From the NCBI GenBank assembly GCA_964359735.1, contig CAYHTZ010000006.1, positions 3,898 to 67,897 on the forward strand: a stretch of 64,000 nt of DNA. The letters run 5' to 3'. Each line of letters begins with the position of its first letter. Position 1 is the stretch's first letter. The stretch is from an uncultured Candidatus Saccharibacteria bacterium (GTDB lineage: Bacteria > Patescibacteriota > Andersenbacteria > UBA10190). Below, piece by piece: positions 43,994 through 61,251 of the stretch. A program made the translations under genes and the position numbers. Under the pieces are notes generated by a model. It made no database searches. It had not been told where the DNA came from and worked only from the letters and a program-made list of their open reading frames with translations.

Positions 43994-44767
43994 TTAGTTG
44001 TAGATGGCGGCGGTGCCGGAAATGTCGCCAGTGGTGAGCGTATTTTTCTTTACTTCGCCTTTGGAACCGTAGCCATACATAGTGTTGTCCACGTAGTCGG
44101 CGGTGTACATATCATCCAGGCCCAGCCAGTGGCCCAATTCGTGGTTCATAATATTTTCCGCATCGTAGGCAGTGGATTCGGCACACTGGGCTTGAGTGGA
44201 CCACCTCCAGGAGAATTTTTTGTTCATAATGGTGTCAACGTCAACTACTTGGCCGGTGGACGTGTAGTAGCGCACGTAGGTGACACCAAGCGCGGAGCCA
44301 GAGGTGCGGCCCCAAGCGATGACGTTTTTCCCGTCGTAGGCTTGGCGGGTGACAGATGTGTTTGGTCCTTGGGTGAATGTAACTTTACTGTTGGCGGCGG
44401 CGGTCCAGTCAGCGAATCCGTTTCCCACAATAGTAGGTAAGTTGCTGCCACCCACGGAAGACGGCACGCTGCTGGGGTTCAAATTGTATGTCCAGTTGGC
44501 GGGAAGCTCCCAGCCGGCGGCACCTACCAAGGCGGCAGAGTCGGGGTCAGCGAGGTTGCAGACAAGCGCGGAAGATTCGTCTCTGGTTGGCCGTTCTGGG
44601 TGTGCGAAAACACGCACGTGTATTCCAGGATGTTCGGGATCGGGATAGTCGCCACTCTCTGCAGGAATGTCAGAAGGTCTGCCGTGGGCGGCACTGGCGA
44701 CGTGTGCGACAGCGATAAGAGTAAAAGCAGCGATGATACTGGCGATGGTCAGGGCAGGTTTGCTCAT
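43994..44767 (-). CDS. secreted zinc metalloprotease (metzincin-like)
   Basis: HELGHWLGLDD (HExxHxxGxxD/H) motif; signal peptide. Confidence 0.7.
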   Translation of the reverse strand: MSKPALTIASIIAAFTLIAVAHVASAAHGRPSDIPAESGDYPDPEHPGIHVRVFAHPERPTRDESSALVCNLADPDSAALVGAAGWELPANWTYNLNPSSVPSSVGGSNLPTIVGNGFADWTAAANSKVTFTQGPNTSVTRQAYDGKNVIAWGRTSGSALGVTYVRYYTSTGQVVDVDTIMNKKFSWRWSTQAQCAESTAYDAENIMNHELGHWLGLDDMYTADYVDNTMYGYGSKGEVKKNTLTTGDISGTAAIYN

Positions 44768-44826
44768 AGTGTGAGTATACCTATTCTATACGCCTTTTTG
44801 AGAAAAGGTGTCAAGTGGCTTGTGCC

Positions 44827-45492
44827 TTACGGCGTGGTCAAAGGGCCTTTCCGGCGCAGCCATTGGAGGACGTGTTTTATGACGATGAGCCACCAGAACA
44901 GCCAGAATATCCACGGAATCCACCACCACAGCCAGCACCACCAAAACCACCAGCAGAACCCCCACCACCAGCCCCAAATCAGCCAGGGGATAAACCAGAT
45001 CCACGGAATCCACCACCACCACGGCCAGGGCCAAGCAAATACCCAAAAGCGCTGTCTCCACCATTGCCAGGAAAAGACGAACCAGGGAATCCACCACAGG
45101 AACCCCCAGATGAGTCCCCACTGCCACCCCCAGTGCAGCCACTGGGGGAGATTTTCCAGAAGTTCGCTTGGCTGGGATAGCTGCATGTCTGTCGTGGTTA
45201 TGTCGGCCTGCTCTTGGCTTTGTTTTTCTAGGGCTTGCAGGCGCTCCTCAAAGTTTTGGATAACGTCAGTTTGCTCGATGGTTTGGGAGAGTGTGTCGAG
45301 CTGTTGCGGTTGGAGTTGTGACCGAGATTGGCTGGCTGCTTGGGGAGCAGGGGCTTCAGTTGCTGCCTGGTGGGTAGCGGTCTCATTGGTTTGGGCCCGC
45401 TGTGTGCCGGTGCCGGGAGCGGCAATTTGGGCCATGGTGATAGCTGGCAGCAGCGCTATTGTCCCCGTCAGTAGTAACATGCGCCAAATCAT
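44827..45492 (-). CDS. secreted protein with Q-rich coiled coil and a hyper-tryptophan-rich C-terminal about 100 aa
   Basis: Signal peptide MIWRMLLLTGTIALLPAITMA; about 38 Trp in the last about 100 residues; the opposite strand would need almost exclusive CCA Pro codons, atypical for this genome (CCG/CCC preferred in recA). Confidence 0.55.
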   Translation of the reverse strand: MIWRMLLLTGTIALLPAITMAQIAAPGTGTQRAQTNETATHQAATEAPAPQAASQSRSQLQPQQLDTLSQTIEQTDVIQNFEERLQALEKQSQEQADITTTDMQLSQPSELLENLPQWLHWGWQWGLIWGFLWWIPWFVFSWQWWRQRFWVFAWPWPWWWWIPWIWFIPWLIWGWWWGFCWWFWWCWLWWWIPWIFWLFWWLIVIKHVLQWLRRKGPLTTP

Positions 45493-45547
45493 GCTACTGG
45501 TGTACCACCTGGGTGAACTTTCGGTCAAGTGGAGTAAGATTAGGCAT

Positions 45548-46317: not shown

Positions 46318-47259
46318 ATGGTGTCGAATGAACACATTGCGCAGGTGTTATACGAAATTGCAGATTATTTAGAAGTAGACGATATGCCATTTAAGCCAGA
46401 GGCATACAGGGAGGCAGCGAAGTTTGTGGAGCATTATAAGGAGGAATTGGTTGCTGTATACAAGCGGGGTGGAGTGGATGCACTGGAGGCATTGCCCGAG
46501 ATTGGGGAAAGCATGGCGAGAAAAATTGCAGAGCTGATTGAGACAGGGAAGCTCAAGTATTTGGAAAAAATGCGCAAGAAATTGCCGGTGGATATGGTTG
46601 GGCTGAATGCCATTGCCGGGGTAGGCCCTAAGACCATTGCCAAGCTGTACAAAGAGCACAAGGTGAAAACGGTAGAAGATTACGAAAAACTTAAGGTAGC
46701 CCAGCCTTCGCTAAAGCTACGGCGGGTGCCTGCTGGGAAAGCAGGTAGAAGATTGTATGCTGAGGTTAAGCCAATTGCTGAGAGTATTGTTTCGGCGTTG
46801 CGAAAATTGCCGCAGGCAAAAGTAGTCGAGGTTGCTGGGTCGCTGCGGCGCAAAACGGCTACAATTGGCGATGTTGATTTGGTGGCGGCATCAACGAGGC
46901 CGGCAAAAGTAATGGAAGTGTTTGCGAGCTTGCCGGAGGTGGAGCGGGTGTATAGCAAGGGAGATACGAAAACGCTGGTGCGACTTAAGGAAGGAATTGA
47001 TGCGGATCTTAGAGTTGTAGCGCCCGAAAGTTTTGGCGCCGCGATGCAATATTTCACGGGGCCGAAAGAACACAGCATTGCCACCCGCCAATACGCGCGC
47101 GACCGCGGCCTGAAGCTGAATGAATATGGCTTATTCCGCGGCAAAAAGAAATTGGCTGGGAAAACTGAGAAAGAAATCTACGATGTTTTGGGCATTAAGC
47201 TGGAGAAGCCGGGGGAGAGGTCTGGAAAGCTCACTGAGAAAAGGCTTGAAGAACGCTAG
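46318..47259 (+). CDS. DNA polymerase beta-like (family X) protein, short form without PHP domain
   Basis: HhH lyase or 8-kDa region plus nucleotidyltransferase motif GSLRRKTATIGDVDLV. Confidence 0.8.
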   Translation: MVSNEHIAQVLYEIADYLEVDDMPFKPEAYREAAKFVEHYKEELVAVYKRGGVDALEALPEIGESMARKIAELIETGKLKYLEKMRKKLPVDMVGLNAIAGVGPKTIAKLYKEHKVKTVEDYEKLKVAQPSLKLRRVPAGKAGRRLYAEVKPIAESIVSALRKLPQAKVVEVAGSLRRKTATIGDVDLVAASTRPAKVMEVFASLPEVERVYSKGDTKTLVRLKEGIDADLRVVAPESFGAAMQYFTGPKEHSIATRQYARDRGLKLNEYGLFRGKKKLAGKTEKEIYDVLGIKLEKPGERSGKLTEKRLEER

Positions 47260-47282: not shown

Positions 47283-47561
47283 ATGGCTAAACCTCAAGTT
47301 ATTGGCACGGTTTCTCATTACTACGACCATATTGGCGTGGCGGTGGTTGAGCTTACCAAGCCACTGAAAAGCGGCGAGACCGTAACGTTTTTACGGGGCG
47401 AGCATCACCTAGTTCAGCCTGTGACTTCAATGCAGATTGACCACACGAATGTGGAGAAGGCTAAGGCGGGCACAAGTGTTGGAGTAAAAGTGGAAGCAAG
47501 TGTACAGCCAGGCGCGAAGGTATATCGGGGCGAGGTACCTGCTCCGGTAGCGGTCAGGTAA
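47283..47561 (+). CDS. small beta-barrel protein (translation-protein-like fold)
   Basis: ORF only. Confidence 0.45.
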   Translation: MAKPQVIGTVSHYYDHIGVAVVELTKPLKSGETVTFLRGEHHLVQPVTSMQIDHTNVEKAKAGTSVGVKVEASVQPGAKVYRGEVPAPVAVR

Positions 47562-47668
47562 AAGCAGGGTAGTTAAAAAGTAGCTTTGTAAGGCTGCTTT
47601 TTGTTGTTTTTTTGACTTTTTTCTTTGTCCATACTATTGTTGGCTGGACAATTAAAGTTGTCTCGAGT

Positions 47669-49546
47669 ATGAAATCCCTATTTAAATCACAAACTTCATA
47701 CGAGCTGATGGACCTTTTGGCGCGGCAGCCCAAGAAGAACTTCTTCTTAGCGGAGCTCGCGAAGACACTGCAGAAAGACAAGGCGAATGTGACGCGTGAG
47801 CTCGATAAACTGCACCAAGAAGGCATCGTACGCGTGGAAGAAAAAGGCGGGAAAAAGTTTTATGGTTTAAACCAGGGCTACGACGGCATTAAGGAGCTCG
47901 TCGGCTTGCTAGAGAAGCACCGCAGCAAAGATTTCGAGACGAAGTTCAAGCGCAGCTGGCTCCTCGCCGAAGACATTCCCAACATGGATCCATTTTTCAG
48001 CCAGATTTGGATGAACTGTTTCGTGAAGGAGTTTGCGGAGCCCAGCGGGCGGGCTTACGAATGTATTGCAGCCATTTACCAGGATTATCACCTCTGGTTC
48101 TACTTTGACGAGAAAGACGCGCACGCGGTGGCACAGAACATTGTCGATCGATTCGATGAGAATCCTGACTTCATGGATGAAGTGAACCGCGAAATTGTGC
48201 GGCACTCCGACGTTCTGCGCGATTTTGCCGAAAAGCTTCCCGAAGAGAAGTTGGAGAAGCTTTCAAATCAAAAGTTATGGCAGCTCTACCGTGACCATGA
48301 GGACACGCACAAGGCCTACTATCAGTGGGCATGGATACCAGTGGCGGTAGATATGTTTACGAATCACCTGACGGAATATGGTAAGAAATTGCTGCAGGAA
48401 ATAGAAGTGCCGGAGGACAAGGTGAATGAGTATTTAACACTGCTCACGCAACCTTCGCGGCCTTCCCCGATTAAGGAGGAACAAGATAGCTTAACTAAGA
48501 TTGCGATTGCGGTGCAGAAAGACTTCCAGCAACTGAAACTCTTCCAAGAACTTTTTCGCAAATTCAAGGAAGAGGATGTGAAGGAGTTCGGGCTTTACAC
48601 TCACAGCCCGGAATACGAAGCGCAATTTGAGAAGCGGGTGCAGGAGCTGGTGGAAACTATTCAGCCAAAGATATTGCAGGCGGTGCAAGAGGTGTACGCA
48701 CGATACTTTTACACCAAGTTTATTTTCACAGAAGAGCAAGGCGTGTACAGCTTCGAGCACTACTTAAAAGCACTGGTGCGCCTCGTGAACCGTACGCCGG
48801 ATTTAGGAAAAGAGTTTCAGGAAGAGGAGCAGGAACTCGCGAATATTATTCAAAAACGGGAAGAGCTTATCAGGAAGCTCAAATTAACCAAACGGCAGCG
48901 TCAAATATTTGATGCCTGGGGAGAATTCATGATAACGAAGATTTACCGCCGGTACGCCCAGCTCTTCGCGCTCTACAAAATGACAGCGATTGTGGAGGAA
49001 ATCGGCCGTAGACTGGGGCTTACCTTGAAACAGACTCGGTTCATGAAGACGAGCGAGGTGGAAGCGGGTCTCTCAGGCGGCAGTGTGGATATGGATGAGA
49101 TTAAGCGGCGGGTGGAGTTCTCTGTTTCTTATGCGGATAAGAACGGGCGGGTGTTTTACTCCGGCGCCGAAGCCAAGAAGGCGGCGGAACTTATCAAAGG
49201 CAAAGAACAGGATTTGAGTGGAATCAAGGAACTGAAAGGCCAGGTGGGTTGCCAGGGCATGGCCACGGGAACCGTGAAAGTAGTGAACGTGATTGAAGAT
49301 ATGAAGAAAATGGAGGAAGGGGATATTCTGGTGGCCATTTCTACACAGCCGGATCTTTTGCCGGCCATGAAAAAAGCGGCGGCGTTTGTAACGGAGCAGG
49401 GCGGGGTAACGTCCCACGCGGCCATTGTGGCGCGGGAAATGAACACGCCGTGCGTGATTGGCACCAAGATTGCCACGAAGGTTTTGAAGGATGGCATGAA
49501 AGTGGAAGTTGACGCCACGAAGGGAATTGTGAGAATTTTGGATTAG
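47669..49546 (+). CDS. winged-helix domain fused to a large helical domain and a C-terminal PEP-utilising-enzyme mobile (phospho-His) domain
   Basis: wHTH LMDLLARQPKKNFFLAELAKTL...; C-terminal GGVTSHAAIVAREMNTPCVIG signature. Confidence 0.7.
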   Translation: MKSLFKSQTSYELMDLLARQPKKNFFLAELAKTLQKDKANVTRELDKLHQEGIVRVEEKGGKKFYGLNQGYDGIKELVGLLEKHRSKDFETKFKRSWLLAEDIPNMDPFFSQIWMNCFVKEFAEPSGRAYECIAAIYQDYHLWFYFDEKDAHAVAQNIVDRFDENPDFMDEVNREIVRHSDVLRDFAEKLPEEKLEKLSNQKLWQLYRDHEDTHKAYYQWAWIPVAVDMFTNHLTEYGKKLLQEIEVPEDKVNEYLTLLTQPSRPSPIKEEQDSLTKIAIAVQKDFQQLKLFQELFRKFKEEDVKEFGLYTHSPEYEAQFEKRVQELVETIQPKILQAVQEVYARYFYTKFIFTEEQGVYSFEHYLKALVRLVNRTPDLGKEFQEEEQELANIIQKREELIRKLKLTKRQRQIFDAWGEFMITKIYRRYAQLFALYKMTAIVEEIGRRLGLTLKQTRFMKTSEVEAGLSGGSVDMDEIKRRVEFSVSYADKNGRVFYSGAEAKKAAELIKGKEQDLSGIKELKGQVGCQGMATGTVKVVNVIEDMKKMEEGDILVAISTQPDLLPAMKKAAAFVTEQGGVTSHAAIVAREMNTPCVIGTKIATKVLKDGMKVEVDATKGIVRILD

Positions 49547-49548
49547 GT

Positions 49549-50550
49549 ATGGCTTTCACGAAACCATTTGAGAAGTTGTCGAAAGAAGACGTGGGTATTG
49601 CCGGGGGCAAGGGAGCTTCCTTGGGGGAGATGACGCAGGCGGGTATTCCCGTGCCGCCTGGGTTTGTGGTGCTCTCAGGCGCATTTGAAGAATTTCTGAA
49701 GGCCACAGATTTGAATGTGGAACTGGATTCCATTCTGGATCAGGTGAATCACACGGTGATGCACGAGGTGGATGGCGCTTCAGGAAAAATTCAGGCGTTA
49801 ATTCTGAGCAAAGAAATGCCGGAGGCGATCGCGAAAGAAGTAGAAGCGGGGTTCAAGAAGTTAGGCGCCAAGTATGTAGCGGTGCGCTCGAGCGCTACGA
49901 GCGAAGATAGCGCTGACGCCGCCTGGGCGGGGCAGCTCGATAGCTATCTGAATACTACCCACGAAGTCTTGCTTGCTAATGTAAAGAGGTGCTGGGCTTC
50001 GCTGTTTACGCCGCGGGCGATTTTCTATCGATTCGAGAAGGGCTTTCACCCTTCGACAGGCTCAGGGCAAGCTGGCAAACGCATTTCGGTGGCCGTGGTA
50101 GTGCAGAAAATGATCCAAAGCGAAGTTTCTGGGATTGCTTTTTCCGTACACCCGGTGACGCAGGACCGCGATCAGATGATTATTGAATCAGGATTCGGGC
50201 TGGGGGAGGCCATTGTGCAAGGCTCCATTACGCCGGATAGTTACGTGATAGAAAAGAGCGCCAAGAATATTTTGGATAAAAATATAACAGTCCAAGAAAA
50301 AGGACTGTTTCGCAGGACCCAGCCTTCGCATGAAGCTTCGGCGGGCAAAGGCGCGGAGGTTAATGAATGGAGAGACATTCCAACTGATAAGGGTGAGATG
50401 CCTACGTTGACCGATGAAGAAGTTTTGGAGCTCTCAGATTTAATTATGAATATTGAAAAGCACTACGGCTTCCCGGTGGACGTGGAATGGGCGCGGGAGA
50501 AGGACAAGTTCTATATTGTACAATCCCGGCCGATTACAACCTTGAAGTAA
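49549..50550 (+). CDS. PPDK_N-type ATP-grasp nucleotide-binding domain protein (PEP synthase / rifampicin phosphotransferase N-domain)
   Basis: GIAGGKGASLGEM...VAVRSSATSEDS...VVVQKMI...VEWA motifs; 2-nt gap from the upstream gene. Confidence 0.8.
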   Translation: MAFTKPFEKLSKEDVGIAGGKGASLGEMTQAGIPVPPGFVVLSGAFEEFLKATDLNVELDSILDQVNHTVMHEVDGASGKIQALILSKEMPEAIAKEVEAGFKKLGAKYVAVRSSATSEDSADAAWAGQLDSYLNTTHEVLLANVKRCWASLFTPRAIFYRFEKGFHPSTGSGQAGKRISVAVVVQKMIQSEVSGIAFSVHPVTQDRDQMIIESGFGLGEAIVQGSITPDSYVIEKSAKNILDKNITVQEKGLFRRTQPSHEASAGKGAEVNEWRDIPTDKGEMPTLTDEEVLELSDLIMNIEKHYGFPVDVEWAREKDKFYIVQSRPITTLK

Positions 50551-51032: not shown

Positions 51033-52088
51033 ATGCGTGAAGAGACGTATCCTATAGGGAGCCTTAACCTTCCGCTCGGGGAAGTGGATACCTCAGCTAT
51101 GGCTGCTGGGGAGTTCCAAGCATGGCGTGACGAGTGGGGATTTATTCCTGATGTGGAAGCGCAGGTTGCCGCCCAGCTTGAAAGGCAGGGGCTCAGGTTG
51201 ATGCAAGAGGATGTTCCGTCTGGCTACCATTGGCCTACTGTACGTGAATGGATTTTCCTCTGTTTCGAACAAAGGAACCCTCATCGGTTTTATCCGGCCT
51301 TTGTGCAACGGGGAGAAAGTGGGGAAGTTTTTTTCACAAAAACACGGGTGCGTTCCCGAGTAGAATTTGGAGGGTTGGAGCATGAAGCTAAAGTATTACG
51401 ACGTCTTCCCGAAGGAGTGAACGCACCAAAAGTGATTGATTATATTCCGGCGCGGGATCGGGAATTAGAGATGCTTGTTCTGAGTAGTGTTCGTTTTAGT
51501 GAAGGCATGGCTCTTCCGGCAGAGCAGTGGCAGCCAGCCAACGCGCAGTCTGCTGCGAGGCAGATTCGAGTACTGGAAACGATGCGCATGGAAGACGTGC
51601 CAGAGCTGTCTGCAGAAGTTGATGTTTCGCTTGAATATTTGTTAGAGCACGTAGGATCTTTTCTGCCTGCTGACCTCGATCAGACAACGAAAGAGGTTCT
51701 GCGTCAGTATTCTCCCCAGGAGACTTCATTGGTACTCGTTCATAGAGATCTGCAGCCGCGAAATATTGTGGTACTGAAAACGGGCGAATGTGTCCCGGTT
51801 GATTGGGAGCAGGGCGGAGCTGGGTACCGTGGTCAGGACGCTGGCCTCCTGTTGTGGCAATTATGGGGAAATGAATCCTCCCGCCAAGCCTTTATTGATA
51901 CTTATATTGAGGCGGATAATCTGGCTGATCGAGCGCAGCGGCTAGCTCGGCTGCGCTTTGGGGTTTTGCTCGAGTTTTTGCGGCAAGTGAGCTGGCATGC
52001 GAAGCGCCCTGACCAGGTTCAAGCTGAGATTGCCAGGCTAGGCCCTCGATTAACTGAAATACTGGCTACCCTGGCTGAGCAGACATAA
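51033..52088 (+). CDS. phosphotransferase-family kinase (APH/choline-kinase-like fold)
   Basis: Catalytic loop LVHRDLQPRNIVV and VDWEQGG..YRGQD. Confidence 0.7.
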   Translation: MREETYPIGSLNLPLGEVDTSAMAAGEFQAWRDEWGFIPDVEAQVAAQLERQGLRLMQEDVPSGYHWPTVREWIFLCFEQRNPHRFYPAFVQRGESGEVFFTKTRVRSRVEFGGLEHEAKVLRRLPEGVNAPKVIDYIPARDRELEMLVLSSVRFSEGMALPAEQWQPANAQSAARQIRVLETMRMEDVPELSAEVDVSLEYLLEHVGSFLPADLDQTTKEVLRQYSPQETSLVLVHRDLQPRNIVVLKTGECVPVDWEQGGAGYRGQDAGLLLWQLWGNESSRQAFIDTYIEADNLADRAQRLARLRFGVLLEFLRQVSWHAKRPDQVQAEIARLGPRLTEILATLAEQT

Positions 52089-53151
52089 GTTTCATGATTG
52101 CCTGATAGGCGTTGGGCTCTCCCGGGACGAAGTGCTTGGCTTGGGCGGCTTGCATTCGCTTTCGGGCTTCTTCGTTGTAGAGAAGCGTATCCACTGAAGT
52201 GGTTGTTTCAGAAAGCGGGGTGAGTTTCGTTTCCATAAAACACGTGCCAGCGCGAGCAAGCGGTGAGAGTTCCCAAATATGCTGTTCAGGAATCGTGGGA
52301 TGGCCGGGAATGTCGGCATTGGCAATGACGGGTATTTGAGCGGCGATAGCTTGAGCAAGCGTGCCCATGCCGTGATGCTGGAATACGAGATCGCTCGCGG
52401 CGAGCGCCCCATAAAAATCATCGATAAAGGTCTTTTCCGTAACCCAGGGGGGCACAGGTTGTGAAAGAGGTGGGCCAAGGTAGAGCACGCGAGTGTTTTT
52501 TCCTCGGCTGCGCAGCTGCCTCACCGAACCCAGCAGCTTTTCAATTACCCAGGGGCGGTGATCGGCACCTCGCCCGCTGGCATACAAGAAAATGAGTTTT
52601 TCATCTTCTTTCAGTTGAAATGTTTTTCGAATGTTCTCTCGAGTCTCTGAGCTCGGCGGCTCATAGGAAGGCACGAAGCCGACCGGTTCCAATTTTTCGC
52701 GAACAGATTTTTCGATGGTAAAATTCCCCCCGTTTTCTTCCAGGCCTAATTCGAAAATCTTAGGAGGAAAGCCGATCAAGTAGCGATCGGCCCAGGTGAC
52801 GAACGGAAACCCGGGGAACTTCGCTCTGTCGAAAAGCCAGAAGGTGTCGAAGCAGACGGTTAGGGGTTTGTTGGGTGGCGGTGTTTCGCGAAAGAGGTCG
52901 TTTTTACGCCAGATTTTGGAATTGCAGAGCACCAGCACATCCGGAGTGTGAAGCTGGAGCTGCGCCACAAGGCTTCCTGGGGTGGGTGTAAAGGCAATAG
53001 TGAATTTGTCGCGATCCGACTTGATAAAATTCATGTTTGTGGCCTGCACCACAGCCAGCGTAACCGCGAAGCCCTGTGTGTGCAGGTGCCGGCCTAAGGC
53101 TTGGGCGTGGGCCACCTCTCCTGGCCCCATGGCAGCGAGAAGACACTTCAT
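52066..53151 (-). CDS. GT-B fold glycosyltransferase (UDP-glycosyltransferase/MGT-like)
   Basis: C-terminal HHGMGT motif. Confidence 0.5.
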   Translation of the reverse strand: MKCLLAAMGPGEVAHAQALGRHLHTQGFAVTLAVVQATNMNFIKSDRDKFTIAFTPTPGSLVAQLQLHTPDVLVLCNSKIWRKNDLFRETPPPNKPLTVCFDTFWLFDRAKFPGFPFVTWADRYLIGFPPKIFELGLEENGGNFTIEKSVREKLEPVGFVPSYEPPSSETRENIRKTFQLKEDEKLIFLYASGRGADHRPWVIEKLLGSVRQLRSRGKNTRVLYLGPPLSQPVPPWVTEKTFIDDFYGALAASDLVFQHHGMGTLAQAIAAQIPVIANADIPGHPTIPEQHIWELSPLARAGTCFMETKLTPLSETTTSVDTLLYNEEARKRMQAAQAKHFVPGEPNAYQAIMKLMSAQPG

Positions 53152-54638
53152 TACAAGTACTTCTGAGCGAGATTTTCGCTGGTGGTGTTTTTGATAAACT
53201 CAATTCCCCAGCGGTAGATATTATTTTCTTCCAAAATATGCCGCATTTCGGCGTTGCGGTGTCGTCTTTCCTCTCGATTCATATTGAGAGCGTAATTGAG
53301 CGCATCGGCGCTGCCCTCGGTGTCGTAGGGATTAATGTGGATAGCAGAGTGCAGATCTTTGGCGGCTCCGGCGAAGCGGGAAAGTACCAAGGCACTTTTG
53401 TCAGGATCAGCGGCGATGGCGAATTCTTTAGCGACCAGATTCATACCATCGTCCAGAGGGCTGACCAAGCCGATATCAGCCAGGCGATAGTAGGCAAAGA
53501 GACGGTTACGCTCAATAGCATGTGTAATAAAGTGAATCGGCTGCCAGCCGTTGTGACTGTATTTTTCGTTAATGCGCTGGACGAGCTTGTGGACCTTGCG
53601 GTGGTAGGTTTTGTAGGCAGGAATAGCTAGGCGGGAGGGAACGCCAATCATGAGCTGGGTAATAAGGTTGCGGTATTGGGGATACTTTTCCAAGAATCGG
53701 TCTAGGATACGCAGCCACTCTACCATACCCTTGGTGTAATCAATGCGGTCGACGCTGAGCAGGAGGTACTTGCTCGTGATATTTAACCCCAAATCTTTTT
53801 TGAGAATGTCGCGCGTAATCGGCTGGCTGCGCTTGATAACGTCGTCAATTTCGCCGGTATCGATACCAGTAGGAAGGTGGACGAGTTTGGTGAGGCGTTT
53901 GCGGTACAGTACGGAGCGGGGCTCGGACTCTACGACCACGCCGATTTCTTCACGGAGTGAGTCAATAAAGTTATCAACGTGGTAGTAGCGATGAAAGCCA
54001 ACCAGATCAGCTCCCAACAAACCTTCTAGGATTTCGCGCCGCCAGGGGCAAATGCGGAAAATTTCCACGGTAGGCCAGGGAATGTGCCAAAAAATCCCGA
54101 TGGAAATATTTGCGTCCATTTCGCGAAGCATTTTGGGCAAGAGTGCCAAGTGGTAATCGTTAATCCAAACGAAAGCGTCCTTTCCTTTAATTTCCTGCAA
54201 GATCGATTTCGCAAAACGGTGGTTTACCTTCGCGTACGTTCGCCACCAGGAAGAGCGAAAGAGCGGCTTTACGAACACGCCGTGGCAAAGCGGCCATAGA
54301 GTTTGGTTGGAAAACCCGTAGTAGAACTGGTCCTGCTCTTTCTTAGTGAGGAAAATTCTTTTGAGTTGGTAGCTTTCTTCGCCGGGCGGAACGGCGACTT
54401 TCCCCTCGGCGTTTAGAACTTCTTTATCGGCTTCTCCGGCAGCGACAGCTACCATCAGCCCGCCGGTCTTGCGCAGGATGCTGTCCAGGAGAACGGTGAC
54501 TCCCCCAATCGAACGCTCAGCCCTAACTCCTTCCGGGGTGGGGTTATGAGTGTACGGTTCACGCTGAATGGCGGCGATGAATTGTCTTTCTTGAAGAGCT
54601 TCGTGTGCGAAACTTATGAGATCTTGAGCAGTTGTCAT
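53151..54638 (-). CDS. otsA: trehalose-6-phosphate synthase (GT20)
   Basis: VNDYHLALLP, HAIERNRLFAYYRLADIGLVSPLDDGMNLVAKEF. Confidence 0.9.
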   Translation of the reverse strand: MTTAQDLISFAHEALQERQFIAAIQREPYTHNPTPEGVRAERSIGGVTVLLDSILRKTGGLMVAVAAGEADKEVLNAEGKVAVPPGEESYQLKRIFLTKKEQDQFYYGFSNQTLWPLCHGVFVKPLFRSSWWRTYAKVNHRFAKSILQEIKGKDAFVWINDYHLALLPKMLREMDANISIGIFWHIPWPTVEIFRICPWRREILEGLLGADLVGFHRYYHVDNFIDSLREEIGVVVESEPRSVLYRKRLTKLVHLPTGIDTGEIDDVIKRSQPITRDILKKDLGLNITSKYLLLSVDRIDYTKGMVEWLRILDRFLEKYPQYRNLITQLMIGVPSRLAIPAYKTYHRKVHKLVQRINEKYSHNGWQPIHFITHAIERNRLFAYYRLADIGLVSPLDDGMNLVAKEFAIAADPDKSALVLSRFAGAAKDLHSAIHINPYDTEGSADALNYALNMNREERRHRNAEMRHILEENNIYRWGIEFIKNTTSENLAQKYL

Positions 54639-54673
54639 ACTTGATTAAAAACGTAAAAATAACCTCCCCACCT

Positions 54674-55807
54674 TTATTGGCCGAGCCAAGCCATCAGCGT
54701 CTGTGGTCCAACAGTGCCGGGGAAAGCTTCGTCTCCCAAAATAACTTGTCGGGATGTATTCGGAAACTGGTAGACGCCAGTTGTTATGGTATCATTATTT
54801 TGTCTTTTTGTCATCTGTTGACGAATGTTATGGAGTGTTTCAGATTGCAAGTCCTGATAGAGCATGGCTCCGCCGGGAATGAGAAACGTGGCCTGGCTTT
54901 TTGGTGCGCCATACAATCCCATTTCCAGATCGGCTGGGGAGTCACCCGCGATCAGCACTTCTATTTTTGCAGAGGGAGATAGATTCACGTGGAGTTGCCT
55001 GTAGACTCTGTTTACGCCGTCTACTTTTTTCATACCTTGGGGTTGGATGTACGTTTTGTATACCGGAGGGGTAGCAGCGAACGCATTTTCGTGTGTGAGA
55101 GTGAGTTGCTTTATGACTGCTGGCGTTGTTTCTTGGACTTGAACTTCGGCGAGGGCACTCGCGAACGTTTCTTGTTCATGGAGGCTCTCGAAGCACGTTT
55201 CGATTCGGTATTGAGGGAAGTACACGCCGGGCTTGCCTTGGCGGTAGTGTTCACCAACTTCGTTCGGGTTGAGTGAGCCAAAGCTTACCCCTCGAGTTTG
55301 CTCAAGACGGTGCAGAGTCTCCACAACCTGCGACCGCCACTCGTTCGGTGCGGCGCCGGCTTGGGCAAGGTAGCTTTCGTCCGCTGCGTAGCCGCCGGTT
55401 ACTTGCCGAACTGCAAGCTCTCCTCCCAGGGTTCCAATGATGGCATCAGGATCGCGAAGGCCGGTGAAAGCAGGAGTTTCCTCCGGGTAGCCAGGCTTCA
55501 GCTTGCCTGTGGCATAGGAGACTAGATTGGCGAGGGGGCGTTGCCGGATTTCTGCGGACGATTTTTCGCGCGCTTCCTTAGTGATGCACGTTTCCGAGGT
55601 GCGGGCAGTGACGAGCACGACGACAAAACCTCGGGTTTCCAAAAGATCCCGCAATGCTTGCTGCTCGGACGGAGTGCCCGAAAATGTTCCGTCGATATCA
55701 AGAAACGCTACCTGGAGGGGCTGGCCTCCTTGGTGGGGTTGGCGAAGTTTTTGGAGAGCTGAGCTATGTTGGTACACGGCGGCGGAATCTTCATGAGCGC
55801 TTGGCAT
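54674..55807 (-). CDS. HAD-superfamily IIB phosphatase, trehalose-6-phosphate phosphatase-like
   Basis: Motif I FLDIDGT, motif IV GDSPADLEM; adjacent to otsA. Confidence 0.6.
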   Translation of the reverse strand: MPSAHEDSAAVYQHSSALQKLRQPHQGGQPLQVAFLDIDGTFSGTPSEQQALRDLLETRGFVVVLVTARTSETCITKEAREKSSAEIRQRPLANLVSYATGKLKPGYPEETPAFTGLRDPDAIIGTLGGELAVRQVTGGYAADESYLAQAGAAPNEWRSQVVETLHRLEQTRGVSFGSLNPNEVGEHYRQGKPGVYFPQYRIETCFESLHEQETFASALAEVQVQETTPAVIKQLTLTHENAFAATPPVYKTYIQPQGMKKVDGVNRVYRQLHVNLSPSAKIEVLIAGDSPADLEMGLYGAPKSQATFLIPGGAMLYQDLQSETLHNIRQQMTKRQNNDTITTGVYQFPNTSRQVILGDEAFPGTVGPQTLMAWLGQ

Positions 55808-56915
55808 GGGAAGAACTTACAACCTCCTCGTAGACTTTCAGGACTTGCTGATACGTGGTTTCCCAATCGAATTTTTTCGCTTGGGCGTAGCCGGCTTCGA
55901 TGAGCTGCTGGCGCAGTGGTGGATCCTGAAACAGTTTTTCTACGGCCTCTCCAATGGCTTCTTCACTATCTGTTTCGACCAGAATTCCGGCGTCGCCCAC
56001 AATTTCCGGCAAGGAACTATTGTTAGCGACAATAGCCGGGCAGCCAGCAGCCATGGATTCTACGGGTGGTAGGCCAAAGCCTTCATATTTGCTGGGATAG
56101 ACGGAGCAGAAGGCATCTTTTAGAATAGCCCCCAGTTGTTCGTGAGATATGTAGCCCGTGAAGACGACACTCTCTTCAATCTTCAAATCTTGCACGAGCT
56201 TCTCGACGGCATGCCGATAGGGGTTGTCCAATTTTTCGCCAATGATTAACAGTCGAAAATCAGGATGACTCTGGCGAATTTTTACAAATGCCCGAACCAA
56301 GAGGTCAATATTTTTTCGAGCGTCGAAACCGCCGAAGTATATCAGGTATGGAGCATGTTCTTTAAAAGGATTTTCTCCATCCATCTTCAATTTTTCCGCA
56401 CCGTTATAAATGACTTGTGATTTATCTTTGGCCTCGGGGAAATATTTACTGACGTCTTTCTGACTGTTTTGAGAGACACAAATAATTTTCTTAGCGCGGT
56501 GGACAGCCAGGCCATAGGCGAGATAGCGGCAGAAATAGTCGGTTTGATTTTTGGGTAAGATGAGCGGAATAACATCGTGCACTGTGACGATACTAGGAAT
56601 AGATGTATCTGGAATGCCGTCGTTTTCCACAGCGTGGTAGAGATCCGGTTTTGTTTGCTCAAGAACGGTAGGAATGACTTCTTCTTCCCAAACGATTTTT
56701 CCGAGCTCCACATTCTTAAAGCGAGGTTTATCAATACTTACGTGGGTTACTTGCTTTGAGAATTGGGATGGGATTTCCCAAAATAATTCATCATATTGAG
56801 TGATAAGCACCACCTCATGTCCATCACGCAGCAGTCGATTCAGGATATTGATAAGGTGAATTCCCACGCCACTGGGTTTACGCTCAATCTCGCGGGCATC
56901 AAAGGCGATATGCAT
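55791..56915 (-). CDS. family 4 (GT-B) glycosyltransferase
   Basis: EGFGLPPVESMAAGCPAIV. Confidence 0.85.
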   Translation of the reverse strand: MHIAFDAREIERKPSGVGIHLINILNRLLRDGHEVVLITQYDELFWEIPSQFSKQVTHVSIDKPRFKNVELGKIVWEEEVIPTVLEQTKPDLYHAVENDGIPDTSIPSIVTVHDVIPLILPKNQTDYFCRYLAYGLAVHRAKKIICVSQNSQKDVSKYFPEAKDKSQVIYNGAEKLKMDGENPFKEHAPYLIYFGGFDARKNIDLLVRAFVKIRQSHPDFRLLIIGEKLDNPYRHAVEKLVQDLKIEESVVFTGYISHEQLGAILKDAFCSVYPSKYEGFGLPPVESMAAGCPAIVANNSSLPEIVGDAGILVETDSEEAIGEAVEKLFQDPPLRQQLIEAGYAQAKKFDWETTYQQVLKVYEEVVSSSHAKRS

Positions 56916-56917
56916 AT

Positions 56918-57679
56918 TTACGATCGATATCGATTCAAAATAAACTCCACTACAGCTGTTGTATTTATCTTCTTTTTGTCAGTTTCCATACGGGAGGTAG
57001 GGTGTTGGCGGTAATGATAGAGGAGGCCTGGGGTTTTTACTGCCTTTCCGGTTTTAATAGCACGGATGAGCCAATCGAGATCGCCGGCGTAGGGAAGGCT
57101 CTCATCCCAGTATCCAGTTTTGGTGAGGAACTCGCGACGGAACATAACCGAGAGGTGATGAACAGGATACTCATGGGTGCGCTCACTGTGAGGTAAGAAA
57201 AAGTCGGCGAGCATTCGTTCGGCTGGCCAATCTTCAGCGGGAATAGTTTTGATAACGTTACCCTCTGGGTCAATTTTATCGATGTCGCCGTGAGTAAAAT
57301 CTGATTCCGAGTGATTTTCGAGCGTGGCAACTCGTTTCGCGAGAGTGTCGGCAGGCCAGAGGTCGTCGCTGTGGATCCACGTTATATATTTCCCTTGCGC
57401 GGCACGCAGCCCTAAGTTTGTCGTAGGGTATTCACCTCGGTTAATTTGGTGAATAGAGATAATTCGTTCATCTTCGGCGAGTTTCTTCTCAATAATTTCT
57501 TGTGTGTTATCTGAGCTTCCGTCGTTGATAACAATACATTCGAAGTCGGAGAATGACTGGCTCAACACCGTATCAAGAGCTGCAGGCAAATATTTTTCTC
57601 GATTGTAGGTAGGGACGATAATTGAGACGAGCGGACTCCTCGTTGGAAGTAGCTTGAAGGGTTGTGAAGACGGCGGCAT
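56918..57679 (-). CDS. family 2 glycosyltransferase
   Basis: SIIVPTYNRE...VINDGSSD. Confidence 0.85.
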   Translation of the reverse strand: MPPSSQPFKLLPTRSPLVSIIVPTYNREKYLPAALDTVLSQSFSDFECIVINDGSSDNTQEIIEKKLAEDERIISIHQINRGEYPTTNLGLRAAQGKYITWIHSDDLWPADTLAKRVATLENHSESDFTHGDIDKIDPEGNVIKTIPAEDWPAERMLADFFLPHSERTHEYPVHHLSVMFRREFLTKTGYWDESLPYAGDLDWLIRAIKTGKAVKTPGLLYHYRQHPTSRMETDKKKINTTAVVEFILNRYRS

Positions 57680-57694
57680 ACGACGAGCGTATCA

Positions 57695-58837
57695 TCAGCC
57701 TTGTGATTGCTCAATAATAGCCTTGTATACGTAGGCACTGGGCCGCGGCTTGCGCTCAAGGGTTTGGTAATTTACCTCCACTAGACCGTAGCGAGGGGTG
57801 AAGCCTAAATCCCACTCGAAATTGTCTAAGAGCGACCAGTGCAAGTAGCCGAGCACGTGAGCTCCCTGAGCCTGAGCAACTTCCACGGCGCGAAGGTGGC
57901 TGCGAATAAAGTTGGCGCGGAGTTTATCTTGGGAATCGGCCAGCCCGTTCTCAGTTACATAGATCGGCAATTGAAAACTTCCCAGGGAAAGTAAGATCTC
58001 CGTTAAGCCTTCGGGGTAGATGGGCGCACCCGTATCGGAACGCAGATTATGAGGATTTTTATTATGTGGGGGTGAGTAATAATTGACTCCGATAAAATCG
58101 TGCGCGCCGGTGGTGGCCTGAAAAAACATTGTATTCCACCACCACTTACGAAGTGGGGTTGTGGTGGTTGTAAAAACGTTAGCAATACCTACTTGCGCTT
58201 GGGGAAAGTGCTGATGAATTATTTTGTATGCTAGCTTGTGGGCTTGAGCAAACATGCTTCTCATTCGGAGAACTCGGGTAGTGCGCTTCCAGAGAGAGGC
58301 AGGAGTGGGCGATTTTTCGGCGACTGGTGGCCAGGCTCCCTTCCAACCTACTTGGTTGAGATACACTACAGGCTCGTTTAGGGTTATCCAAAAATCAACT
58401 AGGTCCCCGAGTTCGTTAGCAATTTTGTCGGTGTATTCTGCGAAGAGAATGGGGGTATGCGGGTTTTCCCAGCCACCCTGCTGCGACACCCAAATAGGGT
58501 TCGTGAAATGGTGCAGAGTTACGAACGATTTTAATCCTAAGCGGCGCAGTTCAGTTAGCACATCGCGATAGTGGGCAATCTCGCGCTGGTTCCAGGTGTT
58601 CGGAGCCGGTTGAATTCTACTCCACTCAATAGAAAGGCGATGCGCGGTATGGCCGAGCGATTTGGCGAGCGCAAAATCTTCTCGGAAGCGGTGGTAGTGA
58701 TCGGTGGCCTTGCTGGAGTGCTCCATTCCTGGTGTGGCTTTTTCCCATGCCCACCAATCGTTGTGGACATTGCCGCCCTCCGTTTGATAGGCGCTGCCCC
58801 CAGCGCCATAGAGAAATTTCTTCTCCCTCATAGTCAT
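57695..58837 (-). CDS. GH1 beta-glucosidase
   Basis: LNEP and TENG catalytic motifs, YGAGGSAYQTEG N-terminus. Confidence 0.85.
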   Translation of the reverse strand: MTMREKKFLYGAGGSAYQTEGGNVHNDWWAWEKATPGMEHSSKATDHYHRFREDFALAKSLGHTAHRLSIEWSRIQPAPNTWNQREIAHYRDVLTELRRLGLKSFVTLHHFTNPIWVSQQGGWENPHTPILFAEYTDKIANELGDLVDFWITLNEPVVYLNQVGWKGAWPPVAEKSPTPASLWKRTTRVLRMRSMFAQAHKLAYKIIHQHFPQAQVGIANVFTTTTTPLRKWWWNTMFFQATTGAHDFIGVNYYSPPHNKNPHNLRSDTGAPIYPEGLTEILLSLGSFQLPIYVTENGLADSQDKLRANFIRSHLRAVEVAQAQGAHVLGYLHWSLLDNFEWDLGFTPRYGLVEVNYQTLERKPRPSAYVYKAIIEQSQG

Positions 58838-58905
58838 AGTATGCCACGAGTTTTGTGAACGTCGTGTTCGCACTCACAATAAAGTATCAGTATAATCAAT
58901 TAATG

Positions 58906-60054
58906 AAGTTTGGAGTCATTGGGTCAATAGCCAAACCTACTCATTCTGAAGCTATGGGAGGAATCGAGGTATGGACTGCTCTTTTTTTGTTAGAATCGAT
59001 TAAGCGAGGGCATGTTTTTGACTTGTTTGCTCTGAAAGGGTCAATAGAAGTAACAAATCAAATCAGGCTCATAGAAGTACTTAAAAAGGGCCTAGATGTG
59101 ATTAAGAATAATCCATTTTTTAAGAGTAAGAGCAAGCTTTCGGGTGAACATAATGGCATGTTACTGATGGATGTGTCTTTCTCCCGAATGATGGTTCTTC
59201 TTAAGGAGAAGCAGCAAGACTACGATATTGTTATTAATAATTCGGCTAGCCCGCTGTTTACAGTTAACTGGGATCTTTATCAGAAACCTCTTTTGAATAT
59301 AGGTCACTTTTCTGCGGCTGAGCCGTACGTAAGTTACTTTGACTATTTCCCATTGCCGCCTCACTGTTTCTTTGTGTTTCCTAGTAGGCGTGAGTATGAA
59401 TTAGCAGCTAGGGTACCGGACCAGCAAAAATTCCATATTCCTCATGGTATAGATATCAGCAAAATTCCCTTTGAAGCAGGTACAGGCAAAAACATGCTAT
59501 GGGTGGGAAGATTAGATCCAGTGGCGCGTAAAGGTGCTCCTGAAGCGATTGCTATTTCTAATAAAATGGAAATACCTATCAATGTCTATACTTATATTGA
59601 GGATACTCATTATTTTGATACCGCAGTTAAACCACTATTCACCGCATATACCCACTTTCAGACAAATATTCCTCGCACAGAATATTTCAAAGATGCCAAG
59701 CTCTTTTTATTCCCTTTGCAATGGGAAGAGCCTTTTGGCTTCACTATTGTTGAGGCAATGGCTAGTGGCACGCCCGTGGTTGCCTATGCGAAAGGAGCAA
59801 TCCCAGAGATCATCAAAGATGGTGAAACAGGTTTCATTGTTAATGCCTCAGAAGATGATCGACGAGGAAACTGGATGATCACAAAAACGGGGGAGGAAGG
59901 TATGTTTGAGGCTGTTGAGAGAATTTATTCACTGCCTTTGGAGCGTTATCAAGCAATGCGAAGAGCATGCCGCGAGCACGTTGAAAGAAGCTTTACGGTT
60001 GAGAAGATGGTTGATGGCTATGAGAAAGCCTATTCAGCTATTCTCGAAAGATAG
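58906..60054 (+). CDS. family 4 glycosyltransferase (lower GC)
   Basis: EPFGFTIVEAMASGTPVV. Confidence 0.8.
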   Translation, partial: KFGVIGSIAKPTHSEAMGGIEVWTALFLLESIKRGHVFDLFALKGSIEVTNQIRLIEVLKKGLDVIKNNPFFKSKSKLSGEHNGMLLMDVSFSRMMVLLKEKQQDYDIVINNSASPLFTVNWDLYQKPLLNIGHFSAAEPYVSYFDYFPLPPHCFFVFPSRREYELAARVPDQQKFHIPHGIDISKIPFEAGTGKNMLWVGRLDPVARKGAPEAIAISNKMEIPINVYTYIEDTHYFDTAVKPLFTAYTHFQTNIPRTEYFKDAKLFLFPLQWEEPFGFTIVEAMASGTPVVAYAKGAIPEIIKDGETGFIVNASEDDRRGNWMITKTGEEGMFEAVERIYSLPLERYQAMRRACREHVERSFTVEKMVDGYEKAYSAILER

Positions 60055-60069
60055 GCGGGGTAGTGCAAC

Positions 60070-61251
60070 TTACTGAGTAAGTAGCTGGGCAAGCTTCACG
60101 AACACGGCGTTGGTCCAGCCAAAACCCTTCTGGGTGGGGTAGCGATCAGCTTTGCCGATTTCCCCCGTGACCACGTTGTATTTTTCCCAGAGGTGGCCGG
60201 TTTTCTTGAGTAGGCGATGATTCAGATCAAGCCACTTTTCGGCAATGCGTTTGACATCTTCCTTGAAGCCATAGTTTAAGAGCCCTTGGACTACAATCCA
60301 CTGTTGGTGTGGCCAGCCGTTGGGGTAATCGTGCTGATTGAAGTTTTTGGAGAGCCCGTTTTTTTGGGTATTGGCGAGGCCGTGAGCGTATTCGAATTTC
60401 TTCAGGTTGCGGCGCACTTTTTCAGCTTGAGCAAGAGTGGCCAACTTGGCCCAGAGGGGATGGAACCCAGCGGTGGAGTAGAAAGCACCGCGGCGGTTGT
60501 GAGCATAATCGTAATCAAAGAAGAAGCCTTTGCGGCTGTTCCACATGAGTTTGTTCATGGTGGCCTGCCGCTGCTTTGCCTGCTTGACATAGTGGTCCCG
60601 TTTTTCGCCGTTACCCAACAGGCCATAGATATCGCTAAGATCTGTCTCGTACTTATACAGCAAGCAGTTGAGGTCTACCGGCAAGAAGTCGAGACAGCGC
60701 TCGTCGAAGCGGCTGGTCATGTCCCAGCCGGATTCGTGCTCGGCGGTGAGGTGCATGACATAGTGATCGCAGTAGCGGGAGAGTCCTTGGAAAACGAGGT
60801 GTTTTTCGGCCCGCGCTGCTTTCTTATCCATCCAATAATTCTCCAATTCACTCTCCGCGACTTCGGCGGCTTGCGCTAACCAGTTTTTATCTTGAGTGGC
60901 ATTGAATATTTCGCGGATCATTGAGGTTAAAAATGGCGGCTGAGACATGCCGAGGTTATAGAAGCGGTTGCGTGATGGGATGATGCCGAAACGCCGGTAC
61001 AAGTAAAGAAAGTTGTCTACCATGCCCTTCGCCAGCTCGCCTTTGCCAGAAGCAACGAGTCCGAGAATAATGGTGTAGCTGTCCCAATAAAATTGATCAC
61101 TGGCGTAGTTACCTTCAGCGGGGGATGGTGCTATGAATGGATTCGGCAGACCGATGATGATGCCCTTGTCTTGAGGGTGCGAGAAAGTCAGCTTCGGCCA
61201 GTAGTCCTCGATGTAGGCTAGTGTCGAGTTGTAGTCAGGTAAAGGACTCAT
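60070..61251 (-). CDS. trehalase (GH37)
   Basis: QFYWDSY and GFGWTN signatures; start trimmed to MSPLPDY to avoid overlap with zwf. Confidence 0.8.
   Translation of the reverse strand: MSPLPDYNSTLAYIEDYWPKLTFSHPQDKGIIIGLPNPFIAPSPAEGNYASDQFYWDSYTIILGLVASGKGELAKGMVDNFLYLYRRFGIIPSRNRFYNLGMSQPPFLTSMIREIFNATQDKNWLAQAAEVAESELENYWMDKKAARAEKHLVFQGLSRYCDHYVMHLTAEHESGWDMTSRFDERCLDFLPVDLNCLLYKYETDLSDIYGLLGNGEKRDHYVKQAKQRQATMNKLMWNSRKGFFFDYDYAHNRRGAFYSTAGFHPLWAKLATLAQAEKVRRNLKKFEYAHGLANTQKNGLSKNFNQHDYPNGWPHQQWIVVQGLLNYGFKEDVKRIAEKWLDLNHRLLKKTGHLWEKYNVVTGEIGKADRYPTQKGFGWTNAVFVKLAQLLTQ

Follow-up and report, generated by a model that had tools for sequence, protein, structure and literature searches.

A probable two-gene dikinase of Patescibacteria with a winged helix on its substrate subunit and a conserved candidate operator upstream

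The DNA described here is a 64,000-nucleotide stretch (the window) of contig CAYHTZ010000006.1 from an uncultured Candidatus Saccharibacteria bacterium. It encodes two adjacent genes, gene 1 and gene 2, that together possess the domains of a dikinase working through a phospho-histidine. The pair is probably an autoregulated two-component small-molecule dikinase of the rifampicin phosphotransferase (Rph) and phenol kinase type, in which the substrate subunit also represses its own operon. The split into two subunits is already known from other dikinases; what is apparently new is the repressor predicted within gene 1, together with the family's large expansion in tiny genomes.

The gene pair and its domains

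Gene 1 is the open reading frame (ORF) 47669-49546, which runs from the ATG at 47669 to a TAG at 49544-49546 and encodes 625 amino acids (aa). Gene 2 is the ORF 49549-50550, which begins with the ATG at 49549, has its stop at 50550 and encodes 333 aa. The gap between them is 2 nt, and the junction reads TAG-GT-ATG. Gene 1 starts at ATG 47669 and not at the upstream TTG at 47612, because the N-termini of 37 homologues align there to MKSLFKS, because an identical NCBI protein (MEK7556775.1) is 625 aa long, and because the TTG is the first triplet of the -35-like TTGACT. MEK7556775.1 is named 'PEP-utilizing enzyme [Patescibacteria group bacterium]'. The putative, consensus-based promoter to which this -35 belongs has 9 of 12 consensus matches. 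A terminator-like hairpin farther upstream ends the gene of a 92-aa protein, and the pair would therefore form its own transcription unit. A tblastn search of the 64-kb window with both proteins found no second homologue of gene 1 or gene 2; the window carries a single dikinase pair.

The AlphaFold2 model of gene 1, built from 38 homologues, has a predicted local distance difference test score (pLDDT) of 86.8 and a predicted template modelling score (pTM) of 0.79. At the N-terminus, aa 8-67 form three helices and a beta-hairpin in the order H-H-H-beta-beta. Foldseek matches this winged helix-turn-helix (wHTH) to the ArsR/SmtB/MarR repressors SqrR, HlyU, SmtB and MepR with probability 1.0 and a target TM-score (TMt) of 0.5-0.7. 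The MarR_2, HVO_A0114 and MarR models of Pfam match aa 7-63 just under their curated cut-offs (26.3 vs 27 bits for MarR_2), and the PADLOC wHTH model PDC-M05A matches with E 7e-12. The PADLOC matches are confined to the wHTH region, and a reading of gene 1 as part of a defence system was dropped. On the model, the winged helix is a DNA-binding domain.

The C-terminus of gene 1 is a swivel domain, the mobile domain of phosphoenolpyruvate (PEP)-utilizing enzymes (PF00391, aa 549-619, E 5e-27, above the cut-off). Its motif GGVTSHAAIVAREM (GGVTSH583) places the phospho-accepting His583 at 49415-49417 and Thr581 at 49409-49411. His583 and the motif GGVTSHAAIVARE are invariant in the alignment of 38 homologues. 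A sequence search of the PDB gives the archaeal PEP synthase 8A8E as the nearest relative of this domain (E 7e-27), and the swivel has the G-G-x-T-S-H of PEP synthase. Gene 2 consists of a PPDK_N ATP-grasp domain (PF01326), matched over profile positions 3-312 of 328 with E 2.8e-91. It has 36% identity with the Bacillus cereus Rph ATP-grasp domain over the whole length of gene 2. Lys21 (in GGKG) and Arg113 (in AVRSSAT) align with the corresponding Rph residues, and the Thr of Rph is Ser here. Gene 2 looks like an intact nucleotide-binding subunit. Neither protein has a PEP/pyruvate-binding TIM barrel (PEP-utilizers_C, PF02896) in the Pfam scan.

Between the winged helix and the swivel lies the middle domain (aa 95-515), of about 420 aa. 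An earlier sequence-only reading of this DNA had described the two ORFs, both of which are present, and a domain inventory of wHTH, helical domain, swivel and PPDK_N, which Pfam, AlphaFold2 and Foldseek bear out. Its helical domain of about 440 aa is mostly helical as described, but is nearer 420 aa and contains two small beta-hairpins in the model. The same reading likened the middle domain to that of Rph and proposed profile and structure comparison as the check, and both comparisons lead to Rph. When the full-length model of gene 1 is searched against the PDB with Foldseek, Rph is the sole full-length match (5HV1, 5FBU and 5FBT, E 2e-12 to 6e-12), with a query TM-score (TMq) of 0.41-0.49 over 600-700 columns; all other matches are to the swivel of about 100 aa. 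To exclude that the swivel drives this match, aa 95-515 were modelled separately (pLDDT 81.3). The top match of the middle domain alone is again Rph (5HV2, E 0.013, probability 1.0, TMq 0.48, 442 columns), followed by 5HV1, 5HV3 and 5FBS with TMq 0.39-0.41, and the non-Rph matches all have TMq <= 0.21. As modelled, the middle domain shares its fold with the rifampin-binding domain of Rph, and the similarity is distant.

Searching the PDB with the middle-domain sequence alone gave chance matches only, and the relation to Rph therefore rests on the fold and on the extension of a profile match from the swivel. In hhalign, the family profile matches B. cereus Rph with 98.5% probability over gene 1 aa 387-624 (230 columns), about 130 aa into the middle domain. 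The Rph reference is a B. cereus plasmid gene that scores 1481 bits against NF041857, whose cut-off is 999. The middle-domain motif TKIYRRYAQ, with K424 at 48938 and R428 at 48950, is invariant across the family. In the hhalign alignment, T-K424-I-Y-R-R428-Y-A-Q lies over Y-R668-E-Y-P-K672-Y-G-M of Rph, so that K424, Y426, R428 and Y429 align to R668, Y670, K672 and Y673, with low per-column confidence in this stretch. In the Listeria Rph, Arg666, Glu667 and Lys670 hold the transferred phosphate, and Arg666 and Glu667 are essential (PMC4844700). The alignment is suggestive of the basic phosphate-holding residues and both tyrosines being kept in gene 1, with the glutamate replaced by isoleucine.

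Gene 1 and gene 2 together have the same three functional modules as Rph (5FBS/5FBT/5FBU, 5HV1-3; NF041857), which is the nearest solved fold for the middle domain and may share with gene 1 a basic phosphate-binding helix of the form [KR]-x-Y-x-[KR]-Y. In Rph a single chain runs from ATP-grasp through substrate domain to swivel, whereas the window pair is two chains, with the substrate domain and swivel encoded first and a wHTH added. The two also differ in that E667 seems not to be kept in gene 1 and in the very low identity of their middle domains.

A conserved palindrome upstream of the winged-helix genes

The sequence-only reading took the N-terminal addition to gene 1 for a DNA-binding-like domain, and this view is strengthened by a candidate operator conserved in 22 of 30 wHTH orthologues. 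The palindrome TTGT-N7-ACAA (consensus ATTGTyTwwTArACAAw) was first seen as a repeat in the 130 nt upstream of the orthologues; the site counts use the 80 nt before the ATG. An exact site lies within those 80 nt in the 22 orthologues. The density of sites is 13.3 per kb upstream vs 0.039 per kb in the rest of the same loci, a difference of ~340-fold. First-order Markov resamples contain 0.13 +/- 0.36 exact sites (max 3 in 2,000) against 32 observed, and the control upstream regions of other ORFs contain 2 sites in 207 regions. The site is found in only 1 of 31 relatives that lack the winged helix.

The sites tend to come in twos. With one mismatch allowed, a pair is present in 23 of 29 loci, and the spacing is exactly 21 bp, or two helical turns, in 22 of 23 consecutive pairs. 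Loci in which the sites lie at other distances from the ATG keep this spacing too. When 17 loci (median protein identity 67%, minimum 36%) are stacked without gaps, the information is concentrated in four elements: the -35 TTGACA, the extended -10 TGnTATTAT and both sites, of which the first overlaps the -10 at its end. Within the palindrome, the outer 4 bp never change, the inner positions are often non-complementary, and there is no covariation. An Rfam scan of the leader gave no match. This pattern favors binding by a protein over a folded RNA, and an RNA element in the leader was rejected on the same grounds.

In the window, the exact core of the operator is at 47637-47651 and starts 32 nt before the ATG of gene 1. 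The 64 kb contain just one further exact match, at 16243-16257 (TTGTGGTGGTCACAA); it falls within the ORF 16141-16899 and has probably arisen by chance. The operator core is followed, exactly 21 bp downstream, by a degenerate second site (47658-47672), which is weak when taken alone.

Other HTH-bearing members of the family have palindromes of their own. A second wHTH paralogue family, ~28% identical and with the N-terminus MLxxLINSQTRLAIL, is found in related loci, here given L numbers (L017 2861-4678, L026 3202-5001, L030 7612-9465, L031 6751-8565 and L034 7348-9147). Its genes have TTGT-N7-ACAA-like sites over the -35 and a different, lineage-varying palindrome near the -10; cross-regulation between the paralogues is suggested. 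Locus L089 encodes tandem subunits with an XRE-type HTH (1096-2787 and 2876-4726) and a PPDK_N protein (4761-5744). Different palindromes, GACTA...TAGTC, lie upstream of these XRE-type genes, including the perfect 24-bp palindrome AAAAGACTACTTAAGTAGTCTTTT.

Relatives, known two-component dikinases and neighboring genes

The locus sample comprises 82 non-redundant related loci; an alignment-based metagenome scan contributed 80 loci. Full-length homologues of gene 1 are 53-61% identical to it, and nearly all of those with a named source come from Patescibacteria. The winged helix is missing from related forms of ~536 aa, and in one relative an XRE-type HTH takes its place. Stand-alone PPDK_N proteins of ~315-330 aa are extremely common in Patescibacteria. 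A search with a middle-domain profile returned 2,029 cluster representatives (50% identity) at E <= 1e-3, 960 of them at E <= 1e-10.

An ATP-grasp gene lies <=150 nt downstream in 6 of the 26 wHTH orthologues with enough flank and <=1.5 kb downstream in 10 of the 26. All six wHTH loci that extend for >=8 kb on both sides have a same-strand ATP-grasp gene, and most arrays of substrate subunits also have one on the same strand. The adjacency of gene 1 and gene 2 is frequent, not obligatory. The sequence-only reading's treatment of the two genes as a pair is therefore sound as to linkage, given the many same-strand loci and the fused proteins, but immediate adjacency is not a fixed property of the family. 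The fusions join middle domain, swivel and PPDK_N in that order in proteins of about 775-920 aa (L061 6782-9502, L070 9782-12553, and the proteins P0316, P0323, P0330 and P0354, of ~775-800 aa). One protein, P0262 (819 aa), has the Rph order of PPDK_N, middle domain and swivel. These fused proteins are independent evidence for a functional link between gene 1 and gene 2.

Substrate subunits occur in tandem same-strand arrays, with 209 swivel-bearing vs 30 ATP-grasp ORFs in 79 loci. The median is 4 swivel-bearing genes per ~20-kb locus and the maximum is 9 (L038, L041 and L055), usually with one ATP-grasp gene. Arrays of 7-9 paralogues of ~480-630 aa each lie at L038 3543-20414, L041 2541-19146, L055 6590-19333 and L018 15-14350. 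The L018 and L041 arrays end with one ATP-grasp gene, and L038 and L055 have none in the stretch fetched. Several very long predicted proteins contain more than one copy of the middle domain: P0284 (2309 aa, 8 matched stretches), P0258 (1500 aa), P0282 (1506 aa) and P0247 (1175 aa). They may be true multi-module chains or artefacts of read-through or gene calling in tandem arrays. In P0291 (721 aa), a substrate and swivel subunit is fused to a C-terminal HAD-type hydrolase, and a HAD gene lies inside the dikinase array of L004 (9391-10005). A phosphatase and a kinase coupled in this way would fit a phosphorylated product that serves as an intermediate.

The division of labor between gene 1 and gene 2 has precedents. 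PpsAB of Thauera aromatica, CreHI of Corynebacterium glutamicum and HpeHI of Rhodococcus rhodochrous are two-component dikinases with an Rph-like substrate domain and the swivel histidine in one subunit and the ATP-grasp domain in another (PMC12167813). HpeHI was characterized in 2025; the HpeI crystal structure as well as the HpeH model show a relation to Rph, HpeH forms a dimer, and the HpeHI complex is transient (PMC12167813). AcvAB of Sphingobium is probably a dikinase of the same type. The sequence-only reading presented its 'split, order-permuted' enzyme as if the arrangement were novel, but this architecture had been published for PpsAB, CreHI and HpeHI (PMC12167813). A split with the ATP-grasp gene downstream is the norm for two-component dikinases and is not a novelty.

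Like those enzymes, the window pair has an Rph-like substrate and swivel subunit of ~60-70 kDa and an ATP-grasp subunit of ~35-40 kDa, and by analogy it would use the same ping-pong mechanism through a phospho-histidine. The dimer of HpeH fits the palindromic operator of gene 1. The characterized members act on phenolics and belong to catabolic clusters, whereas the window pair is in a Patescibacteria genome and no catabolic genes were recognized among its immediate neighbors. The phenolic kinases have Met where the gene 1 swivel has Thr581 (T-S-H), and none of the characterized members is reported with a fused DNA-binding domain. The best of the NCBIfam PRK08296 models scores 97.7 bits for gene 1 against a cut-off of 578 and covers only the swivel (aa 498-625). 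The same model spans the stand-alone subunit of Thermomicrobium roseum end to end with 214 bits, also under the curated cut-off. In hhalign, the gene 1 family aligns with the T. roseum subunit over 104 swivel columns only, vs 230 columns against Rph, and membership of gene 1 in the PRK08296 group was rejected. By these comparisons gene 1 is no close member of the classical two-component dikinase subfamily. The T. roseum pair itself (L088/L090, megaplasmid NC_011961.1 59297-66286) is a classical two-component dikinase with a PPDK_N protein of 323 aa and a PEP-utilizing enzyme of 564 aa. The cluster around it looks catabolic and has a gene of its own for a GntR regulator, in contrast to the fused regulator of gene 1.

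The coordinates of the features in and around the gene pair are collected in Table 1. Upstream of the pair are a short PolX-type DNA polymerase beta-like gene (46318-47259, 313 aa) with helix-hairpin-helix, palm and thumb regions, and the gene of the 92-aa protein (47283-47561), a beta-barrel weakly like domain 2 of EF-Tu. The beta-barrel protein recurs once, 3 kb upstream of a PPDK_N gene in L006. The sequence-only reading pointed to a hypothetical protein and an APH-like kinase near the pair, but neither has a match in the 89 related or comparison loci. They are not conserved neighbors, and the kinase was dropped as a functional partner. More generally, none of the PolX gene, a 90-aa ORF, the APH-like kinase and a glycosyltransferase recurs near relatives. 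Downstream, a mostly minus-strand cluster of sugar-metabolism genes occupies 52066-61488. A compositionally odd stretch lies at 44600-45530 and includes a CCA-rich repeat at 44920-44970. Its plus strand reads as a His/Gln/Pro-rich ORF and its minus strand as an extremely Trp-rich protein (44827-45528, WWWWIPWIWFIPWLIWGWWWGFCWWFWW); the reading of either strand is putative.

Table 1. Features of the gene pair, its upstream region and the downstream sugar-metabolism genes (positions in the window; aa, amino acids of gene 1; GT, glycosyltransferase; GH, glycoside hydrolase)
Feature	Position	Strand	Support or remark
Terminator-like hairpin, then T-run	47574..47603	+	13-pair stem, then TTGTTTTTTT; closes the upstream 92-aa gene
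Promoter-like site	47612..47640	+	-35 TTGACT 47612-47617, 17-nt spacer, -10 TATTGT 47635-47640
Candidate operator, 17-bp palindrome ATTGT-TGGCTGG-ACAAT (ATTGTTGGCTGGACAAT)	47636..47652	.	Overlaps the -10 hexamer TATTGT
Degenerate second site TTGTCTCGAGTATGA	47658..47672	.	Exactly 21 bp downstream of the first; overlaps the start codon; 2 mismatches in the right half-site
Gene 1, winged helix-turn-helix (MarR/ArsR-like) and linker helix, aa 1-94	47669..47950	+	Pfam, AlphaFold2, Foldseek, PADLOC
Gene 1, mostly helical substrate-binding domain, Rph rifampin-binding-domain fold, aa 95-515	47951..49213	+	Foldseek, hhalign
Gene 1, PEP-utilizers swivel phospho-histidine domain, aa 516-625 and stop	49214..49546	+	Pfam E 5e-27; 8a8e E 7e-27
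Gene 2, stand-alone PPDK_N ATP-grasp subunit, 333 aa	49549..50550	+	Pfam E 2.8e-91
GT20 trehalose-6-phosphate-synthase-like gene	53151-54638		Mostly minus-strand sugar cluster
GT4	55791-56915		Mostly minus-strand sugar cluster
GT2	56918-57679		Mostly minus-strand sugar cluster
GH1	57695-58873		Mostly minus-strand sugar cluster
Further GT	58855-60054	+	Sugar cluster
Trehalase-like GH	60070-61488		Mostly minus-strand sugar cluster

Proposed function, alternatives and meaning for the family

The chemistry that we infer for the pair follows from homology to Rph, PpsAB and HpeHI. The ATP-grasp protein of gene 2 would bind ATP. The swivel of gene 1 would then dock on gene 2, and His583 would be pyrophosphorylated or would be phosphorylated at the beta-phosphate, with AMP and inorganic phosphate released as the other products. 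The swivel would swing back to the helical domain of gene 1, where the phosphate would be passed to a hydroxyl (or similar nucleophile) of a small molecule near the helix of the invariant K424, R427 and R428. As a regulator, a dimer of gene 1 would bind TTGT-N7-ACAA through its N-terminal winged helices, across the -10 and the transcription start, and repress the operon. The binding of substrate, or the phosphorylation state of the enzyme, would be expected to free the DNA. Synthesis of the enzyme would then be limited to times when substrate is at hand, which would make it a 'trigger enzyme' in the sense of BirA.

Trigger enzymes and enzyme-repressor fusions include BirA, which is both the biotin ligase and the bio repressor, as well as NadR and PutA. 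Gene 1 resembles this type in being an enzyme with an N-terminal (winged) HTH and a palindromic operator over its own promoter, to which binding is predicted. The catalytic domains of BirA, NadR and PutA are unrelated to the dikinase, and no dikinase of the PEP-utilizing superfamily is described as a trigger enzyme or enzyme-repressor in the searchable literature. Searches of that literature on the family in Patescibacteria and on HTH-fused dikinases also gave no report of a dikinase substrate subunit that is joined to a DNA-binding domain acting on its own, defined operator, of a large tandem expansion of substrate subunits around a single ATP-grasp gene in Patescibacteria, or of split, canonically fused, permuted-fused and HAD-fused forms within one middle-domain family.

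Several observations weigh against the autoregulated dikinase. Among them is the lack of a nameable substrate. Identity between the middle domain and Rph is only 12-15%, and the Foldseek match of the domain by itself is weak, with an E value of 0.013 and a TM-score of about 0.4-0.5. Glu667, which positions the phospho-histidine in Rph, aligns with Ile425, again with low per-column confidence. For the close orthologues of L001/L007 and L003/L035, the nearest 10 kb contain no ATP-grasp gene. The window itself has one perfect copy of the operator, in the register -32 vs the usual -40/-19. The wHTH-bearing and wHTH-less relatives are different orthologous groups, so that the co-occurrence of operator and wHTH could be due in part to shared ancestry, and the palindrome could be bound by another regulator.

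One alternative is a phospho-relay transcription factor in place of a metabolic enzyme. Here gene 2 would charge His583, phosphorylation alone would set DNA binding, and the helical domain would serve as a sensor or in dimerization, with no small molecule phosphorylated. The wHTH and operator are well supported, the Rph catalytic Glu aligns with Ile, and several HTH-bearing paralogues in one array resemble a regulatory network. On the other side, most family members (~480-540 aa) have the same middle and swivel domains without a DNA-binding domain. The putative second active site keeps its basic residues throughout, and the fusions to ATP-grasp or HAD hydrolase look enzymatic. We consider such a relay unlikely. 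Less likely again is a dikinase that acts on a polymer or other macromolecule (a glycan, a cell-wall or surface polymer, or a protein), as glucan-water dikinase (GWD) does on starch. In plant GWD the His domain is followed by a C-terminal nucleotide-binding domain, and the enzyme is a single chain with starch-binding modules of the carbohydrate-binding module (CBM) families CBM45 and CBM20. The order of substrate region, His domain and C-terminal ATP-grasp in GWD and phosphoglucan-water dikinase (PWD) is that of the window genes and of the P0316-type fusions, and many sugar-metabolism genes (GT20, GT4, GT2, GH1 and trehalase) lie downstream. The pair differs from GWD in that the Pfam scan of both proteins shows no carbohydrate-binding module, CBM45 and CBM20 included. 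In Rph, the domain that the middle domain resembles is a pocket for a small molecule, and the sugar genes run mostly on the opposite strand and do not recur beside relatives.

The two named enzymes closest to the pair are poorer candidates still. In favor of a split rifamycin phosphotransferase that confers antibiotic resistance, no solved structure is nearer than Rph, and outside the swivel no profile matches better. With the NCBIfam model for that enzyme (RIF_Ptrans_rph, NF041857/NF000283), however, gene 1 reaches 70 bits and gene 2 reaches 254, where the cut-off is 999. The middle domain, at 12-15% identity to Rph, is not found by sequence search alone, and the E667 that is essential in Rph aligns with Ile in gene 1. 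The family is 55-61% identical across Patescibacteria and forms arrays of up to 9 divergent paralogues, unlike a single-drug resistance gene. Rifamycin is unlikely to be the substrate, and a role of the pair as a resistance determinant is very improbable. A split PEP synthase (pyruvate, water dikinase) is, by a little, the most doubtful of all. It is the best match of swivel and ATP-grasp in NCBIfam and among PDB sequences, the swivel has the T-S-H of the PEP synthase type, and the Joint Genome Institute (JGI) labels homologues 'pyruvate, water dikinase'. Yet the TIM barrel (PEP-utilizers_C) that would bind PEP or pyruvate is missing from both genes, and the rest of the window shows no homologue of gene 1 or gene 2 and so no extra swivel or ATP-grasp gene. 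The scores against the PEP synthase models (TIGR01418/NF005057) are 123 and 321 bits vs an equivalog cut-off of 598.

The autoregulated small-molecule dikinase thus remains the preferred account of the pair. Its conservation across Patescibacteria, the paralogue arrays and the HAD fusions argue for the handling of metabolites rather than resistance to a single drug. Homologues are labelled 'PEP-utilizing enzyme' or 'pyruvate, water dikinase', and counting them as PEP synthase would wrongly credit these reduced genomes with a gluconeogenic step. The related loci and the named closest homologues are from Patescibacteria, where arrays of 10-20 kb make up as much as 1-2% of a genome of ~1 Mb. Such a share implies an important piece of physiology. 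The proposed built-in repressor and its operator could also reveal the substrate without culturing, through a screen for ligands that free the protein from TTGT-N7-ACAA DNA.

A broader and more tentative idea, which we hold as possible but not favored, is that the arrays form a hub-and-spoke system in Patescibacteria. One ATP-grasp subunit would act as the hub that charges up to nine or more tandem, substrate-specific swivel paralogues, several of which would repress their own promoters through their own operators. The whole would be an ATP-driven analogue of the phosphotransferase system (PTS). If true, its role would be to detect scavenged metabolites, to trap them and perhaps to activate them in organisms unable to synthesize them, and the window pair would be a minimal version with a single spoke. 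An enzyme-repressor fusion in a dikinase, together with an ATP-grasp subunit common to many substrate subunits, would, if true, extend the enzymology of swivel-domain proteins.

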